From: Desulfoluna spongiiphila
Lineage (GTDB): Bacteria; Desulfobacterota; Desulfobacteria; Desulfobacterales; Desulfolunaceae
DNA: 32,000 nucleotides
Direction of reading: 5' to 3'
Assembly: GCF_900101345.1 (NCBI RefSeq)
Contig: NZ_FMUX01000014.1
Location: 57,233 to 89,232, forward strand
Shown piece by piece: positions 7,222 through 30,265 of the stretch (position 1 is its first letter; each line of letters starts with the position of its first letter). The notes beneath the pieces were generated by a model. It was given only the letters and a program-made list of their open reading frames with translations, was not told the DNA's origin and did not search any database. A program made the translations under genes and the position numbers.

Positions 7222-7375
7222 AAAAAGCGCTGCCTCCGGTGGGCAGGGGCTTTTATCTTAGTGTGGCTTCGCCACCCCCTGCACCCCGGGTTCGCGAATG
7301 CTCCGAGTCCTCGTTCCTCGGTCTCGTCACATTTGCTGACGGTCTTCATGATTTTGAGACCTGTTTGTCAAACCC
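7222..7375 (-). repeat. modular intergenic repeat, degenerate copy in reverse orientation (head-to-head with the next copy)
   Basis: AAAAAGCGCTGCCTCCGG start. Terminal GC hairpin 7232-7250 followed by TTTT. Reverse-complement hairpin A is GCGAATGC...CCTCGTTCCTCGG...CACATTTGC (7294-7336). Ends with CCTGTTTGTCAAAC (7360-7373). Confidence 0.8.
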
Positions 7376-7387
7376 AGCGCATAGAAA

Positions 7388-7537
7388 TTGACAAAAGGTT
7401 GGCAAACAGGTTTTAAAAAACAGATTCAGTATAGCCTGGATCAAAGGCGGATGTGATTTTTCCCGAGGAACGAGGGGAAAAACGCATTCGTAACCTGCTT
7501 TCAATGTGGCACACCTTGCCGCCGGAGGCAGCTTTTT
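7388..7537 (+). repeat. modular intergenic repeat, forward copy (L remnant plus complete R module)
   Basis: TTGACAAAAGGTTGGCAAACAGGTTTTAAAAAACAG, then GGCGGATGTGATTTTTCCCGAGGAACGAGGGGAAAAACGCATTCGTAACCTGCTTTCAATGTGGCACACCTTGCCGCCGGAGGC (12-mer at 7518-7529), then AGCTTTTT. Confidence 0.9.
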
Positions 7538-15198: not shown

Positions 15199-15260
15199 GT
15201 CATAGGTAAAGAGGGAATAGGGGCTCAGACAAAAAATGAATATACACGTCACGCATGAAT

Positions 15261-15352
15261 GCCGCTGTGATTTAACCCGAGGAACGAGGGGTAAAGCGCA
15301 GCGGTAACCAGCTTTCAAGGTGGCTCACCTTGCCGCCGGAGGCATTGTTTTT
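15261..15352 (+). repeat. intergenic repeat, complete R module between arsR and hgcA
   Basis: GCCGCTGTGATTTAACCCGAGGAACGAGGGGTAAAGCGCAGCGGTAACCAGCTTTCAAGGTGGCTCACCTTGCCGCCGGAGGC (12-mer at 15332-15343), then ATTGTTTTT. Confidence 0.9.
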
Positions 15353-16904: not shown

Positions 16905-16980
16905 GGCCTAGGGGAAACGTTTTTTTATAATCAACGTCGGGGGGATGACAGAGCCACAGAGGGCGTAGGAAAAAAAGCAC

Positions 16981-17121
16981 GCCTCCGGCGGCAAGGTGGG
17001 GGCACCTTGAAACCTTATGGCGAATGCATGGAGGCCGTCGTTGTGCGGGCGTTGTCGGGGCATTCGCGTGAAGGATGACATTCGGCAACCGTCTCGGCAG
17101 GAGACACCCATGTCATTCTTC
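16981..17121 (-). repeat. variant structured element V1 (related to the R module, with three hairpins)
   Basis: Starts GCCTCCGGCGGCAAGGTGGGGGCACCTTG. Hairpins: CAAGGTG/CACCTTG (16992-17009), GCGAATGC/GCATTCGC (17020-17067), GAAGGATGACAT/ATGTCATTCTTC (17070-17121) enclosing GTCTC/GAGAC. Paralogous to 28572-28709. Confidence 0.85.
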
Positions 17122-17150: not shown

Positions 17151-17328
17151 GCCTCCGGCGTCCCTGTGGGGGGCTAAGCTTTTAAAAAGTTTGACAAATA
17201 GGTCATAAAAAACCGTCTGAACCAATGACGATTTATAAGCGGATGTGATTTGACCCGAGGCACGAGGGGCAAAACGCATTCGCAACCTGCTTTCAAGGTG
17301 GCACACCTTGCCGCCGGAGGCAGCTTTT
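17151..17328 (+). repeat. intergenic repeat, complete composite (L-rc plus R)
   Basis: GCCTCCGGCGTCCCTGTGGGGGGCTAAGCTTTTAAAAAGTTTGACAAATAGG...GCGGATGTGATTTGACCCGAGGCACGAGGGGCAAAACGCATTCGCAACCTGCTTTCAAGGTGGCACACCTTGCCGCCGGAGGC (17310-17321), then AGCTTTT. It abuts the stop codon of the TRIC gene. Confidence 0.92.
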
Positions 17329-20418: not shown

Positions 20419-20506
20419 TTTATGGTGATGCTCCTTGGCGCCACCCCGACGATGCCGGGATACGCTTGTGTTTATCTGGGGCGCAGTATGCGGCGTGAAA
20501 CACATC

Positions 20507-20710
20507 AGCTTATGCCTCCGGCGGCCCTGCCGGGGGCTAAACTTTTGCCTGATTAATAAAAAACGTGTTTAACAAACAGGCCTAAAAAAACTGCTTGAAT
20601 GCATTTCGCTTTAAAGGCGGATGTGCTTTGACCGGCGAGGGCCGGGGGGCAAAGCGCATCCGCAACCTGCTTTCAAGGTGGCATACCTTGCCGCCGGAGG
20701 CTGTTTTTTT
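20507..20710 (+). repeat. intergenic repeat, complete composite (L-rc plus R) in a divergent promoter region
   Basis: AGCTTATGCCTCCGGCGGCCCTGCCGGGGGCTAAACTTTTG...GTTTAACAAACAGG...GGCGGATGTGCTTTGACCGGCGAGGGCCGGGGGGCAAAGCGCATCCGCAACCTGCTTTCAAGGTGGCATACCTTGCCGCCGGAGGC (20690-20701), then TGTTTTTTT. Confidence 0.92.
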
Positions 20711-20881
20711 GTGCTGAATCGTTGCAAAACATTTTAGTATAGGCCCCTGGCATGGCACCGTAAAGAAGATTGTTGTGCGGGCTTGTCTCTGCAGGCGGAA
20801 TACGGTAAAAGTGGGGAATTTCTTTAAAATATCGATTTTATCGCAATAGGGCGGTCATCGTATCGCCCGGGGAGTGTCGTT

Positions 20882-22883: not shown

Positions 22884-23030
22884 AAAAAGTTTGCCTCCGG
22901 CGGCGAGGTGAGCCATCTTGAAAGCTGGTTGCGGATGTGACCCAGGCTGGACGGAATCTGTTTAAAAAAAACTGTTTATTAAACTTTTTAAAAGTTTAGC
23001 CCCCGGCAGGGCCGCCGGAGGCATCGCTTT
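22884..23030 (-). repeat. intergenic repeat, composite in reverse orientation (R-rc with deleted hairpin A, plus L)
   Basis: AAAAAGTTTGCCTCCGGCGGCGAGGTGAGCCATCTTGAAAGCTGGTTGCGGATGTGA...CTGTTTATTAAACTTTTTAAAAGTTTAGCCCCCGGCAGGGCCGCCGGAGGC (23011-23022), then ATCGCTTTT. Confidence 0.9.
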
Positions 23031-26274: not shown

Positions 26275-26317
26275 GCGAATGCTTCGAACCCTCGTTCCTC
26301 GGGCTCCTCACATTCGC
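26275..26317 (-). repeat. isolated hairpin-A fragment of the repeat family, right after the feoB stop
   Basis: GCGAATGCTTCGAACCCTCGTTCCTCGGGCTCCTCACATTCGC is nearly identical to 7294-7336 and is the reverse complement of the R-module hairpin A (loop GAGGAACGAGG). Confidence 0.8.
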
Positions 26318-26376
26318 TGACGGGCTACGCCCGTGAATACCGGTCTGAGAAGCCTCACCCTAATTGACAGAATAAG

Positions 26377-26472: not shown

Positions 26473-26652
26473 GCCTCCGGCAGCCCTTCCGTGGGGCAAC
26501 CTTTTGAAACGGTGGATAAACAGGTTTTGGAAATAGGTTCGGTTTAATCTGAATCAATGGCGACTGTGTTTTTCCCTGAGGAACGAAGGGGAAAGCGCAA
26601 TTCGCAACCTGCTTTCGAGGTGGCACACCTCGCCGCCGGAGGCTGTTTTTTT
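26473..26652 (+). repeat. intergenic repeat, complete composite (L-rc plus R)
   Basis: GCCTCCGGCAGCCCTTCCGTGGGGCAACCTTTTGAAAC...GGCGACTGTGTTTTTCCCTGAGGAACGAAGGGGAAAGCGCAATTCGCAACCTGCTTTCGAGGTGGCACACCTCGCCGCCGGAGGC (26632-26643), then TGTTTTTTT. Confidence 0.9.
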
Positions 26653-26715
26653 CGGTGATTTTAACCATAGAAGGCAACGCTTGAAAAGGTGCCCTCTCGC
26701 CTGTAAAATGCCCCC

Positions 26716-27492
26716 ATGAACATGAAACTCTTTGATACCCATGCCCACCTTCAGGACCCCCGTATGGCGGACACCATGGACGCCATGATGGACCGAGCCC
26801 GCAAGATCGGGGTGACCCGGATTCTTTCCTGCGGTACCCGGGAAGAGGACTGGGGGGCGCTCACGGCCCTAGCCGGGCGTCATCCCGAGATTCTTCCTGC
26901 CTACGGTGTTCACCCCTGGTTCATCGAGACCCTTTCCCCGGACTGGGTGAACGCCCTGGGTCAACGGTTGACGGAAAGTCAGGCCGCCGTGGGAGAGATC
27001 GGCCTTGATTTTGTGGTGGAAGGCCTTGACCGGGGCAAGCAGGAGGCGGTCTTCCTGGCCCAGCTCAGGCTGGCCCGATCCCTGAAACGGCCGGTTTCCA
27101 TCCACTGCCGGAAGGCCTGGGGCCGCATGGTGGAGCTCTTGAAGCAGGAGGGCGGACTGCCCCACGGCGGCGCCATCCACTCCTTCTCCGGATCCGTGGA
27201 GATGGTCAGGGAGTTTGAACGCCTCGGCGTTTTTTTCTCTTTTTCCGGTTCCATCACCCGCCCCAACAACCTCAAAGCCAAAAAAGCCGCTGCCGCAGCC
27301 TCCCCGGATCGCCTCCTCATTGAAACCGACAGCCCCGATATCCTTCCGGAAAATGCCCCCGGCCCTTTGAATGAACCGGCCCATGTGATACAAGTCGTGA
27401 CCACCCTGGCAACCGTACGCAAGACCACCCCTGAAAAGGTGGCCGACATAACGTGGAATAACGCGGTGGGGTTGTTTGGTTCGGGAGATTAG
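26716..27492 (+). CDS. tatD: TatD-family metal-dependent hydrolase/DNase
   Basis: 258 aa. N-terminal KLFDTHAHLQD, then GEIGLDF, SIHCR, AIHSFSGS, ETDSPD - the TatD metal-ligand motifs in order. Confidence 0.88.
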   Translation: MNMKLFDTHAHLQDPRMADTMDAMMDRARKIGVTRILSCGTREEDWGALTALAGRHPEILPAYGVHPWFIETLSPDWVNALGQRLTESQAAVGEIGLDFVVEGLDRGKQEAVFLAQLRLARSLKRPVSIHCRKAWGRMVELLKQEGGLPHGGAIHSFSGSVEMVREFERLGVFFSFSGSITRPNNLKAKKAAAAASPDRLLIETDSPDILPENAPGPLNEPAHVIQVVTTLATVRKTTPEKVADITWNNAVGLFGSGD

Positions 27493-27501
27493 GGAAAGGG
27501 C

Positions 27502-27755
27502 AAAAAGACAGCCGCCGACGGCAAGGTGTGCCGCCTTGAAAGCTGGTTGCGGATGTGTTTTGCCCCTTGCTTGTCGCTCCGTAGCCCATTGACGTGGGGC
27601 GAATGGGGCCACATAGACACGGGCGTAGGTGGATTCATCGGGTCACATCACATCCGCTTTTAATGTAAAATTCATTCAAAAAGATTTTTTAAAACCTGTT
27701 TGTTAAACTTTTTAAAAGTTTAGCCCTCGGCAGGGCCGCCGGAGGCTGCTTTTTT
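27502..27755 (-). repeat. intergenic repeat, reverse composite with about 90-nt insertion inside hairpin A
   Basis: AAAAAGACAGCCGCCGACGGCAAGGTGTGCCGCCTTGAAAGCTGGTTGCGGATGTG (27549-27557 arm)...CACATCCGC (27649-27657 arm)...CCTGTTTGTTAAACTTTTTAAAAGTTTAGCCCTCGGCAGGGCCGCCGGAGGC (27735-27746), then TGCTTTTTT. Confidence 0.88.
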
Positions 27756-28812: not shown

Positions 28813-28854
28813 GTCATATGGGCGCTACAGGAAAGGGTCAAACTACAGATAAAT

Positions 28855-28947
28855 GCCGCTGTGATTTAACCCGAGGGGCGAGGGGTAAAGCGCTGCGGCA
28901 ACCCGCTTTCAAGGTGGCACACATTGCCGCCGGAGGCCTCGCTTTTT
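28855..28947 (+). repeat. intergenic repeat, complete R module
   Basis: GCCGCTGTGATTTAACCCGAGGGGCGAGGGGTAAAGCGCTGCGGCAACCCGCTTTCAAGGTGGCACACATTGCCGCCGGAGGC (28926-28937), then CTCGCTTTTT. Closest to the copy at 15261-15352. Confidence 0.9.
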
Positions 28948-29596: not shown

Positions 29597-30043
29597 GGAT
29601 CACATCTCCTCATGGTTCTGATTTTTAAAAAAGTCGGTGTGCCTGTGAGGCGGTTGCACTGATGATGACTCCTTAGCTGATATATCAGATATCAGAAAGT
29701 TGTGAAAGCAGACATTTTTTCCGGGGGGCGGCTGGCCGTGGCGTCGCAAGCCCCGAAGGCATAAAGGGGGGACGCTCGGAACTCTCTTTTTTAATGGAAT
29801 ATGTGGCGTCTGTCATCTCCGGTGTTCTCATCAAGGCATCATCTGATGGTTAAGGAAACCATGAAACCGGCGAAAAACCAAGGACAAAAAGCGAGGCCGG
29901 TTGCATCCTTTTTTGGGGGGGGGATATAGATGGCTAAGGGCGAAAGGGCTTTGTTGCCGGAGGTTTTTTCCTGTTTGGCCCAGATACGGTATGTTTTTTG
30001 TAACTATTTGGCTTAAAAAACAGCTTTCTATGGGTGGAGTGCG

Positions 30044-30226
30044 AAAAAAAGCCTCCGGCGGCCAGGGGATGATCTTCTGGACCCCAGGATACAAATCATT
30101 TCACCCCTCGTTCCTCGGGGTGAAATGATTTGCGAAGGCTTCTGCAAAACCCAGGTAAAACCTTTTTGTTAAACTTTACAAAAGTTTAGCCCCCGGCGGG
30201 GCCGCCGGAGGCATAAGCTGAATAGT
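30044..30226 (-). repeat. intergenic repeat, reverse composite with a perfect 16-bp hairpin A
   Basis: AAAAAAAGCCTCCGGCGGCC...CAAATCATTTCACCCC (30092-30107), loop TCGTTCCTC, GGGGTGAAATGATTTG (30117-30132)...TTTGTTAAACTTTACAAAAGTTTAGCCCCCGGCGGGGCCGCCGGAGGC (30201-30212), then ATAAGCTGAATAGT. That outer tail matches 17137-17150 in reverse complement. Confidence 0.9.
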
Positions 30227-30265
30227 GACTATTTTTTAACCCCAAGACGAGAAATTGGCGGTCGT

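Follow-up and report, generated by a model that had tools for sequence, protein, structure and literature searches.

The focal composite and other copies in the window

The window, that is, the whole 32-kb stretch of DNA that was analysed, carries at 20497-20725 a composite element of 229 bp, the right half of which is the focal copy of a repeat referred to here as the R module. The focal module lies in sense orientation 170 nt upstream of an aldehyde:ferredoxin oxidoreductase gene (20882), and the ATG at 20505, the start of the longest open reading frame of an aldolase gene, falls within the element. The composite consists, in order, of a terminal inverted repeat (TIR), an inverted 12-mer hairpin, an A+T-rich palindrome, a spacer, hairpin A, hairpin B, the family 12-mer GCCGCCGGAGGC, a T-run and a second TIR, and all of these parts are given on the plus strand. 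The outer left end is the TIR 'E1', GAAACACATCAGC followed by TTAT (20497-20513), which is degenerate and matches the consensus GTAACTATTCAGC in 9 of 13 bases. It is followed by the L2 hairpin, GCCTCCGGCGGC-CCT-GCCGGGGGC (20514-20537), which opens with 12 bases that match the family 12-mer in reverse complement. One U-G pair of this hairpin on the plus strand is a C x A mismatch on the minus strand, and 91 of 98 L copies retain this position, which is C x A in the L sense and G-U in the R sense. Positions 20538-20615 hold the A+T-rich L1 palindrome, then AACAAACAGG..AAAAAAA, which is the conserved spacer, and a stretch that varies (consensus of 34 composites); the focal palindrome is the long variant, in which the GCCTGATT... 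stretch is inserted.

Hairpin A (20616-20663) follows, with the arms GGCGGATGTGCTTTG (20616-20630) and CAAAGCGCATCCGC (20650-20663). As the first-pass annotation had proposed, 20617-20630 pairs with 20650-20663 in a 14-pair stem that includes the t20624-g20656 wobble. The apex of the focal copy is atypical, as a small hairpin, CCGGC-GAGG-GCCGG, replaces the family loop GAGGAACGA. The conserved linker AACCTGCTTT (20664-20673) leads to hairpin B, CAAGGTG-GCA-TACCTTG (20674-20690), with a G20680-T20684 wobble that is private to the focal copy. A GCTTTC motif spans 20669-20674, so that its final C is also the first base of hairpin B, and it is able to pair with GGAGGC of the 12-mer to give an alternative 'T' hairpin. 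The 12-mer itself (20690-20701) is invariant, the T-run TGTTTTTTTGT (20702-20712) is an integral part of the R module, and the outer right end is the second E1 repeat, GCTGAATCGTTGC (20713-20725; consensus GCTGAATAGTTAC), with 11 of 13 bases matching. Both TIRs and the target duplication have decayed in the focal copy.

Modules of the family were found in 10 of the 25 intergenic regions of the window. R1 modules lie on the plus strand at 7444-7535 (113 bits), 28852-28943 (108.6 bits) and 15258-15349 (113.8 bits), the last being a solo copy with the GCCGCTGTG-type stem, which the first-pass annotation had used for comparison. Full L-R composites on the same strand occupy 17151-17327 (12-mer pair 17151-17321, R1 17236-17327) and, upstream of tatD, 26473-26649 (R1 26557-26649), where hairpin B is CGAGGTG/CACCTCG. 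A composite of the opposite orientation (27505-27746, minus strand) abuts the tatD stop codon with its R1 module (27505-27660, minus strand), and its L module ends at 27746 on the plus strand. The minus strand also carries an E1-bounded composite at 30000-30229, with an R2-type module at 30045-30136 (minus strand) and the flanking 8-mers TGTTTTTT and TATTTTTT, a short composite at 22887-23022 made up of a truncated R1 (minus strand) and an L module (plus strand), and a divergent R-type module with hairpin B and the 12-mer at 16975-17070. Exact copies of the 12-mer GCCGCCGGAGGC number 14 in the window, and with up to two mismatches 47 matches were obtained, compared with 9.2 +/- 3.3 in shuffled sequence.

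Abundance, mobility and gene context of the family

These hairpins are members of a very abundant, mobile, intergenic repeat family of the sulfate-reducing genus Desulfoluna, and the focal region is a single R module of this mosaic family, which is specific to Desulfoluna/Desulfolunaceae. A covariance model search detected 283 copies in 720 kb of Desulfoluna DNA, every one of them from Desulfoluna-type assemblies and most of them intergenic, and the comparisons among copies took in about 150-190 of them, the set depending on the test. No Rfam family was matched at its gathering score across the whole window, and a permissive search of the 261 bases at 20480-20740 returned chance-level matches only (E >= 3.2). 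The literature yielded no paper on Desulfoluna repeats and none on GCCGCCGGAGGC in a relevant context; the family is apparently undescribed so far. The exact R pattern is also present in two IMG/VR contigs, a possible link to phages.

All module types of this mosaic superfamily (R1, R2, R3 and L) share the 12-mer as their common and invariant 3' end, usually followed by four variable bases and the T-run. Pairs of 12-mers face inward in 102 cases and outward in 5, and in the composites the inverted 12-mers stand 170-190 nt apart, the L and R halves being otherwise dissimilar. Some forms of the family are true MITEs (miniature transposable elements that end in inverted repeats), with 13-bp TIRs and 8-bp target duplications. 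Elements bounded by E1 pairs (GTAACTATTCAGC/GCTGAATAGTTAC) measure 133-456 bp, and perfect 8-bp duplications were found in 9 of 35 pairs (L076, L087, L064, L004, L008, L031 and L060 among them), with one mismatch in 5 more. The TIRs and 8-bp duplications of the complete forms point to staggered-cut (DDE-type) insertion, and termini starting with GTAA together with 8-bp duplications presumably recall the IS66 family. In a search for an autonomous partner insertion sequence, none of the E1 pairs 1-4 kb apart had a duplication. Two other candidates were rejected: a second outer inverted repeat, CTTTAACCATAGAAGGC, of which the 37 occurrences are never paired 100-500 nt apart, and random 5' truncation, as by target-primed reverse transcription, as the matches have 5' ends that gather where modules begin or end (profile positions 1-20, 101-110 and 141-150).

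The family spreads and undergoes rapid replacement between species. We observed orthologous sites that hold different module types in species with 92% identical flanks, as well as filled and empty sites at the same position, and the comparison of filled with empty sites places the T-run within the inserted DNA. A group II intron homes into copies of the family, and two of them hold it at the identical module position; a location behind terminator-like inverted repeats is known for IIC introns (PMC1702495).

The copies adjoin ordinary genes (AOR, FeoB, TatD, ThiF) in both orientations, are scattered over the D. limicola chromosome and lie mostly at the 3' ends of genes, with unrelated neighbours. 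On gene calls from a crude self-trained caller, R1 modules were enriched between convergent genes (28% of placements versus 16% of intergenic regions) and depleted between divergent genes (9.5% versus 23% of intergenic length); on the same calls, in tandem intergenic regions, the T-run of composites pointed with the genes in 28 cases and against them in 14, and solo R1 modules were co-oriented in 23 and anti-oriented in 34.

Fold conservation and strand polarity

Selection on the strand that ends in ...GCCGCCGGAGGC-N4-TTTT maintains the hairpin A stem. The first-pass annotation had argued from a few copies that structure, and not just sequence, is conserved, and had asked for a family-wide covariation analysis, which, carried out with a covariance model, supports the conserved fold. 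All of the strings that it quoted were found at the positions given, and its comparison copy at 15261-15304, with the arms GCCGCTGTG/CGCAGCGGT, indeed differs from the focal copy by A-T to C-G and G-C to C-G changes and retains t15268-g15298. Across the family, all 16 pairs of hairpin A covary, with double-sided changes at each of them. Among 147 distinct copies, 96.0% of the hairpin A cells are paired, compared with 83.9 +/- 0.3% in shuffles and 35-48% with a slid partner, and changes on both sides amount to 361 cells versus 78 +/- 14 in shuffles; none of 500 shuffles reached the observed value by any measure. A parsimony count gives about 108 independent double changes, and an alignment-free mirror test on 187 loop-anchored hairpins gave 2469 Watson-Crick, 246 G-U and 73 A-C pairs. 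The claim that all copies keep a T-G pair at one stem position is true of the six full R copies aligned from the window (6/6); family-wide, this pair (11/41) reads TG 73, CG 46, TA 14 and CA 2, a GC<->GU<->AU series. The apical loop described as conserved is kept in the family as the 9-nt GAGGAACGA, an invariant purine-rich block on a freely varying stem, with the focal copy and its own hairpin apex as an exception. On its 5' side hairpin A is flanked by a variable AAGG/AATG.

That one strand is the folded strand was likewise borne out by the count that had been named as a test, as G-U pairs far exceed A-C pairs in hairpin A, by 189 to 24 in cells and 70 to 13 in inferred events, and by 51 to 8 on terminal branches alone (p = 9e-9). 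Of 150 copies, 136 fold better as the sense strand than as the antisense strand. Transitions at single stem columns are symmetric between the strands (C>T 86, G>A 78, A>G 39, T>C 36), so mutation bias cannot account for this asymmetry and was ruled out as its cause; the unpaired columns are also free of deamination-type bias. Hairpin B behaves differently. Its strings were found as annotated, CGAGGTGGCACACCTCG at 26616-26632 and CAAGGTGGCATACCTTG, with the G-T pair, at 20674-20690. The argument from wobbles to one folded strand, which is supported for hairpin A, does not extend to it, since G-U and A-C counts are about equal (12 versus 10 cells, 4 versus 7 events) and show no strand polarity, and the single wobble at 20680/20684 is thus not a family trait. 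Hairpin B covaries at one pair only (60/74: AT 92, GC 47, CG 6).

For the 3' part of the module, RNAfold prefers another hairpin, GCUUUC-AA-GGUGGC / GCCGCC-GGAGGC, and this 12-pair T hairpin, ending at the 12-mer, was placed in 6 of 6 window copies. Its three U-G pairs are conserved in 130-140 of 147 copies, and U-to-C changes that would strengthen it are almost absent, which suggests that the T stem is kept for sequence recognition and not for stability. In R2 modules the T hairpin is not conserved and hairpin B is, so the geometry of R2 is not that of a canonical intrinsic terminator. Within 15 nt after the 12-mer, a run of four T is present in 76% of R1 modules and 58% of R2 modules versus 9% of the intergenic background, at a fixed offset of +5 to +8, the T-run starting 4 nt past the stem and not immediately after it. 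An extension of the T stem into this 4-nt spacer was rejected (p53 versus p87, no covariation, chi-square p = 0.11), and a simple terminator scan does not call the module. An internal sigma-70 promoter was also rejected: the spacer TTGACA is conserved, but has no -10 element at the right distance, and a scan of the sense strand finds none.

Competing readings and comparison with known systems

We infer that the folded sense strand acts as RNA, and we give an even chance to the reading that the R module is a mobile cassette that works at the RNA level and is similar to a transcription terminator. Such a module would be portable, would stop transcription and would form the 3' end of an RNA. Transcripts arriving from its 5' side would fold hairpin A first, presenting the purine loop GAGGAACGA on a stem that is free to vary, where it is probably read by a protein; the following hairpin, 12-mer and U-run would then fold, and the RNA would be terminated or stabilised. 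Placed behind a gene in one orientation or the other, it would be of use or at least be tolerated, because antisense transcripts would also be stopped, and between divergent promoters it would be harmful. Copies without the fold would neither persist nor seed new copies. In favour of this reading are the T-run with its fixed offset, the T hairpin predicted at the 12-mer, the GC<->GU<->AU series of pair 11/41, the G-U of the L2 hairpin in the same sense, the enrichment between convergent and depletion between divergent genes, the co-orientation of composites with genes and the group II intron; against it are the solos that are not co-oriented, the 4-nt gap before the T-run, the T stem that does not extend by covariation, the R2 modules in which the T hairpin is not conserved, the near absence of U-to-C changes and the failure to find an internal promoter. 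A more speculative suggestion, to which we attach a low probability, is that GAGGAACGA and GCCGCCGGAGGC, both purine-rich and both with GGA, dock a single dedicated factor, by which the folded sense strand would be read throughout the genome. This factor may be an undescribed single-strand-specific mobilisation enzyme, which would imply REP-like transposition of a new kind, superimposed on MITE shells; or it may be a global regulator that binds RNA, in which case hundreds to thousands of 3'-end modules would form one regulon or sponge.

A serious rival, though less probable than the RNA cassette, is that the selected molecule is single-stranded DNA, the sense hairpins, loop and 12-mer being recognition or cleavage sites of a strand-specific mobilising or recombining enzyme, such as an HUH/Y1 transposase (RAYT or IS200/IS605 type) or a different single-strand recombinase. 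The fold would then be under selection through the elements' own propagation. G-T is the best-tolerated mismatch in DNA hairpins too, so that a polarity in which G-T is tolerated and A-C purged does not on its own point to RNA, and transversion mismatches number 43 on terminal and 2 on internal branches, as expected if intact copies alone propagate. Invariant blocks beside free-to-vary stems (compare GTAG in REPs), the BIME-like mosaic grammar of modules alternating in orientation, the random orientation of solos relative to gene transcription and the quick exchange of module types at a given site, with the 12-mer as anchor, would all suit such a substrate. This reading nevertheless leaves the element's own T-run without a role, finds no GTAG-like 5' motif, and has to accommodate complete forms with TIRs and 8-bp duplications. 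The R1 sense strand lies on the G-rich strand in 110 versus 84 cases, a replication-strand bias that is weak at best, and tblastn with E. coli RayT and IS200 TnpA queries gave no Y1 transposase at E < 0.6 in 745 kb, a sample drawn from several genomes that amounts to no more than roughly one tenth of a genome equivalent.

Less probable by far is a double-stranded site, in which the palindromes and the 12-mer bind a nucleoid or topology protein or extrude as cruciforms, the fold signal being a matter of dyad-symmetric binding. Gyrase, IHF and Pol I bind BIMEs, and the high density and intergenic position of the copies, the partly palindromic 12-mer with its CCGG core and the orientation independence of solos would agree with this. 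However, the two strands are equivalent in a dyad site or cruciform, and yet one strand shows an excess of G-T over A-C of about 5-8 fold; the stems vary freely with pairing kept, unlike the evolution of sequence-specific half-sites, and conserved A-G and U-G positions, which are not Watson-Crick pairs, persist.

Very improbable, in our view, is the absence of any selection on the fold, with template switching or arm-to-arm gene conversion restoring complementarity and a few amplified subfamilies inflating the covariation. Copies are related by descent, so cell counts exceed independent events; the arms of a sister MITE type that forms a long hairpin stay largely complementary despite great sequence difference between copies; and in one orthologous pair the copy decays, by eye, at about the rate of its flanks. 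Yet the double changes counted by parsimony are already independent events, the excess of G-U holds on terminal branches alone, single-column transitions are symmetric, and template switching is strand-neutral and would wipe out the U-G and A-G positions that are conserved. A riboswitch or attenuator, as a cis-regulatory leader of the downstream gene, here that for aldehyde:ferredoxin oxidoreductase, would fit the sense orientation 170 nt upstream and the two exclusive folds possible (B or T), but is hardly credible for copies that point either way relative to their unrelated neighbour genes and lie mostly at 3' ends, that are depleted in divergent (promoter) regions, that have no Rfam match, and in which a candidate antiterminator, GCUUU:AAAGC, was rejected by inspection, as its AAAGC side varies with its hairpin A partner and GCTTT is invariant, with no covariation.

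Whether REP-like repeats are selected as RNA, single-stranded DNA or duplex DNA is an old question that is only partly settled. The present family displays an unusually clean one-strand fold signal, with about 108 compensatory events and wobbles about sixfold over A-C, in copies that are randomly oriented to genes and carry a built-in T-run and two invariant blocks, which makes Desulfoluna a convenient system for asking which molecule is selected. The repeats also occupy a large share of the intergenic regions and will confuse annotation, break assemblies and attract the group II intron.

With reference to known systems, the first-pass annotation had drawn an analogy with REP/RAYT and IS200/IS605 ends, which holds for the compensatory stems and the one-strand fold of hairpin A and is weakened by the missing GTAG, by the negative search for a Y1 transposase in the sample, by the weak replication-strand bias, by hairpin B without polarity and by the complete forms with TIRs and 8-bp duplications. 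REP/BIME elements, associated with RAYT (TnpA-REP; PMC3184786), are likewise imperfect palindromes, short and extragenic, that reach hundreds to thousands of copies, with compensatory stems, an invariant short motif beside the hairpin, alternating orientation, mosaics with other motifs, a position mostly at gene 3' ends and a tendency to be targeted by other mobile elements. The invariant block of Desulfoluna, however, is a 12-mer 3' of hairpin B and not GTAG on the 5' side, its unit includes the T-run, its complete forms carry the TIRs and duplications, and no RAYT gene has so far been linked to the family; the composite halves are alike in the 12-mer only and are therefore not a REPIN-like doublet. 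A known interspersed repeat of about 100 nt, found behind genes, has a predicted RNA fold that ends in a hairpin and U-run (PMC3184786). The Desulfoluna module resembles it in size, 3' end and position without sequence relation, and differs in the 4-nt offset of the U-run, in the extra covarying hairpin with a conserved 9-nt loop, and in solos that are not co-oriented with genes.

The MITEs Correia/NEMIS of Neisseria and bcr1 of the Bacillus cereus group are transcribed within neighbouring RNAs, and the RNA-level fold of bcr1 is kept by compensatory changes (PMC3184786, PMC10969869). Desulfoluna forms share with them the TIRs, target duplications and small size, and, being without coding capacity, have the properties of MITEs; unlike them, they have the inverted repeats in some copies only, their internal modules also occur alone and outlast these repeats, and conservation is higher in the internal 12-mer than at the termini. 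The ends of IS200/IS605 likewise have sub-terminal hairpins that are read on one strand as single-stranded DNA and in which wobble or mismatch positions matter. That family is not known to have terminal inverted repeats or to make target duplications, and it shows a strong replication-strand bias towards the lagging-strand template, whereas the complete Desulfoluna elements have TIRs and 8-bp duplications, which is not IS200/IS605 behaviour, and the strand bias is weak at best. Integron attC sites are similar in that structure outweighs sequence, one strand is folded and functional and unpaired bases are kept, but the Desulfoluna copies have no R'/R'' core sites and form no array, being scattered in both orientations beside ordinary long genes. 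An intrinsic terminator has a G+C-rich stem with the U-run immediately behind it and follows a transcription unit in the same orientation; the T hairpin is predicted in the window copies and most R1 copies have the T-run, but the latter begins at +5, and co-orientation with genes differs between composites and solos. The Desulfoluna repeats are a further example of an element type already known rather than a novel type of system.

Selected pairing in hairpin A and its strand polarity

In this study, the pairing in hairpin A, the main stem of the repeat module (20616-20663 in the focal R1 copy), was found to be under selection. The first-pass annotation had proposed from the sequence alone that the fold of the repeat hairpins is conserved and that one strand is functional, and the strings and coordinates it quoted were all correct on direct check. 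The focal stem joins 20616-20630 with 20650-20663 in 14 pairs, one of them the wobble t20624-g20656. At 15261-15304 this wobble is retained, and a pair of double changes (A-T to C-G and G-C to C-G) preserves the stem. Hairpin B, the smaller stem 5' of the family 12-mer, reads CGAGGTG/CACCTCG at 26616-26632 and contains a G-T pair at 20674-20690. RNAfold reproduced hairpin A in six window copies (z-scores -1.2 to -4.7), and for their 3' part preferred over hairpin B a "T" hairpin, GCUUUC-AA-GGUGGC / GCCGCC-GGAGGC, which ends at the 12-mer and contains three U-G pairs. The proposal that the apical loop is kept while the stem differs holds for the family, with GAGGAACGA identical in 96 of 147 copies whose stems varied at many positions, but not for the focal copy, where a small CCGGC/GCCGG hairpin takes the place of this loop.

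A covariance model built from the six window copies, with hairpin A as its only structure, gave 283 matches at E < 0.001 in 720 kb; the pattern used to collect copies does not touch hairpin A. In the covariation test suggested by the first-pass annotation, run on the best 150 of the 283 matches (147 distinct), both-side changes were observed at all 16 hairpin A pairs. Hairpin A cells were paired in 96.0% of cases, against 83.9 +/- 0.3% in shuffles and 35-48% with the partner slid, and 361 cells were changed on both sides, against 78 +/- 14, with 0 of 500 shuffles reaching the observed value. An alignment-free comparison of mirrored offsets around 187 distinct GAGGNACGA occurrences, with no fitting to the model, yielded 2469 Watson-Crick, 246 GU and 73 AC combinations, and the signal collapsed on a shift of 1-2 bases. 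Parsimony on a distance tree recovered about 108 double events from one Watson-Crick pair to another, and the kept non-Watson-Crick positions are two A-G purine-purine mismatches and one U-G.

The molecule under selection is one specific strand. Unequal numbers of G-U and A-C pairs, as the first-pass annotation expected, were seen in hairpin A cells (189 vs 24), in the events inferred by parsimony (70 WC>GU vs 13 WC>AC) and on terminal branches alone (51 vs 8, p = 9e-9). Mutation bias was ruled out as the source of this excess, since stem transitions are symmetric per column (C>T 86, G>A 78, A>G 39, T>C 36); G>A stem changes occur, yet persist only if compensated. Transversion mismatches number 43 on terminal branches vs 2 on internal ones, so broken-stem copies leave no descendants. 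In 136 of 150 copies the sense strand, which ends in the 12-mer and then a T-run, has the more stable fold (mean energies -40.6 vs -35.3 kcal/mol for the antisense), and together with the hairpin A asymmetry this bears out the claim of one functional strand. The wobble polarity claimed for the hairpins stands for hairpin A but not for hairpin B, with G-U/A-C at 12 vs 10 cells and 4 vs 7 events. Hairpin B displays strong covariation at one pair (AT 92, GC 47, CG 6), and its shape is retained in R2 and R3. One non-Watson-Crick pair of the L2 hairpin, kept in 91 of 98 copies, reads as G-U in the R-module sense and as C x A in the opposite one, and the rest of the variation in this hairpin slightly prefers that opposite sense.

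A mobile and mosaic repeat family

The 12-mer GCCGCCGGAGGC has 14 exact copies in the window and 47 matches with at most two mismatches, compared with 9.2 +/- 3.3 in shuffles. It forms the shared end of several module types: R1, the type first described, including the focal copy; R2, where CCAGGGG-ATCAT-CCCCTGG replaces hairpin B; R3, with an inserted GTGGC-TTC-GCCAC hairpin; and L, which is AAAAGTTTAGCCCCCGGCAGG followed by the 12-mer. A module is present in 10 of the 25 window intergenic regions, among ordinary genes (class II aldolase, aldehyde:ferredoxin oxidoreductase, FeoB, TatD, ThiF and others). R2-subfamily pieces lie in reverse orientation (- strand) at 7232-7345 and 26275-26335, as GCGAATGCT..CCTCGTTCCTCGG..CACATTCGCTGACGGGC. 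Upstream, these pieces also carry one more small hairpin, ACGGGC-NNN-GCCCGT, which is found again in many solos (modules standing alone).

A scan of one genome per species, with a pattern fixing the linker and 12-mer only, returned at least 88 stretches. Among the matches listed, all fall in six assemblies, five of them Desulfoluna/Desulfolunaceae/Desulfobacteraceae (D. limicola ASN36, D. butyratoxydans MSL71 and three MAGs) and the sixth a MAG labelled Alphaproteobacteria; window coding regions are 78-86% identical to one matched MAG, which places the window in a related genome of Desulfoluna type. The contig L065 (CALNZX010000006.1), from a MAG labelled "uncultured Alphaproteobacteria" of the same study as a Desulfolunaceae MAG, carries three exact R patterns, which probably reflects either a binning error or a family that extends beyond the genus. 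One exact R pattern occurs in each of two contigs of the IMG/VR viral collection (L089, L090), which may be prophage regions of Desulfoluna genomes. Rfam searches of the whole window and the focal region returned nothing similar, and a literature search found no paper on the family.

Inverted 12-mers face outward 102 times, with peak spacing of 170-190 nt, and the opposite way 5 times. Aligned composites (L plus R) read, in order, GTAACTATTCAGC-TTAT, GCCTCCGGCGGCCCTGCCGGGGGC, TAAACTTTT-N-AAAAGTTTA, ACAAACAGGTTTTAAAAAA, a variable stretch, hairpin A, AACC-N-GCTTTC, hairpin B, the 12-mer, the T-run and GCTGAATAGTTAC. Their outer 13-mers are terminal inverted repeats, and 8-bp flanking duplications are perfect in 9 of 35 terminal-repeat pairs, with one mismatch in 5 more. 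The 13-bp termini and the L module are shared with a second, roughly 255-bp MITE type, represented by L004:1283-1536, L008:1177-1428, L031:1191-1445 and L060:6991-7245, which show perfect 8-bp duplications. The interior of this type is different, being a hairpin some 24 pairs long that varies greatly in sequence from copy to copy but has largely complementary arms. R modules are mostly solos without terminal 13-mers, and solo 5' ends coincide with module boundaries rather than being random. The block CTTTAACCATAGAAGGC lies 3' of the T-run in some R modules (window 26644-26676 and 37 sites in the sampled loci), and no two of those 37 sites form an inverted pair spaced by 100-500 nt.

The focal composite (20497-20725) has decayed termini and contains the start codon of the longest aldolase-gene ORF, ATG at 20505. 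This start is probably an annotation trap, because the Pfam match begins only at residue 55; on the - strand of 20503-20525, GGAGG of the 12-mer lies nine bases upstream of this ATG.

Two different R1 copies of D. limicola (L083:589-2690, - strand; L033:5868-8000) are interrupted by an antisense group II intron some 2.1 kb long, which encodes a reverse transcriptase and a maturase domain (Rfam D1-D4 63.9 bits, D5-D6 44.5 bits). In both, the insertion lies precisely at the junction of hairpin A and the linker, and therefore the repeat is a homing site; IIC introns are known downstream of inverted repeats that resemble terminators (PMC1702495).

Turnover was examined in two pairs of species. At orthologous loci with flanks 92% identical (L059:1331-1760 and L068:2881-3320), one species has R1 and the other R2, both anti-oriented behind the same stop codon, and some 130-150 nt beyond are unalignable. 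The difference in module type points to replacement, or to insertion more than once, with the 12-mer and T-run as the anchor. In the R module upstream of tatD, the window and L037 share near-identical hairpin B and 12-mer and differ in hairpin A subfamily. At 26682-26718, between this module and the gene, TTGAAA-N17-TAAAAT just 5' of the tatD start codon would make a good sigma-70-like promoter.

The T-run, genomic placement and the form of the selected strand

Within 15 nt past the 12-mer, a run of four T's was found in 76% of R1 modules, 58% of R2 and 27% of L; the share among intergenic windows is 9%. The T-run has an offset of +5 to +8. In filled site L016 compared with empty site L046, homology picks up directly after the T-run, which thus belongs to the element. 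With a crude self-trained gene caller, 44 R1 modules (28%) were placed in convergent intergenic regions (background 16% of intergenic regions) and 15 (9.5%) in divergent ones (background 23% of intergenic length). Between tandem genes, 51 R1 modules are co-oriented and 48 anti, comprising 28 and 14 composites and 23 and 34 solos, respectively. The sense strand is the G-rich strand 110 times vs 84 for the other. In the 8-kb D. limicola loci L002-L083, the GC skew changes sign near 1.3-2.2 Mb and 4.5-5.0 Mb of NZ_AP024488.1, so the origin is probably near 5.0 Mb rather than at position 1.

Judged from sequence, the reading we favour, at about an even chance, is that the selected strand acts as RNA, because the T-run is integral to the module and has a constant offset, the three U-G pairs of the predicted T hairpin are sense-only, placement shuns promoter regions and prefers convergent gene ends, and the composites' T-runs point with genes. 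A one-way stop signal behind a gene would be tolerable in either orientation, since antisense transcripts would also be blocked, and such tolerance would account for the solos. Against the RNA reading count the 4-nt gap before the T-run, R2 without a T hairpin, and the near absence of U-to-C improvements in the T stem. That the strand acts instead as single-stranded DNA is a serious though less likely alternative: this would account for the mosaic grammar and for invariant blocks next to variable stems, as well as for the independence of orientation and the way modules replace one another, but it leaves the T-run unexplained, is without a candidate enzyme and fits uneasily with terminal repeats and duplications. 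A duplex-DNA site or cruciform cannot produce the G-U/A-C asymmetry, nor would template switching, under which the conserved mismatches would be lost.

Comparison with known systems

The analogies drawn in the first-pass annotation, with REP/RAYT and with IS200/IS605 ends, did not survive the defining tests of either system; for REP/RAYT, there is no GTAG and no REPIN symmetry, and no RAYT was seen in the 745 kb of sampled DNA, a small part of each genome. The tests for MITEs are passed by a subset of copies. In kind, the family is similar to the REP/BIME mosaics, to SPRITE, which are terminator-like repeats, and to bcr1, which are structured MITEs (for this comparison group, see PMC3184786, PMC10969869).
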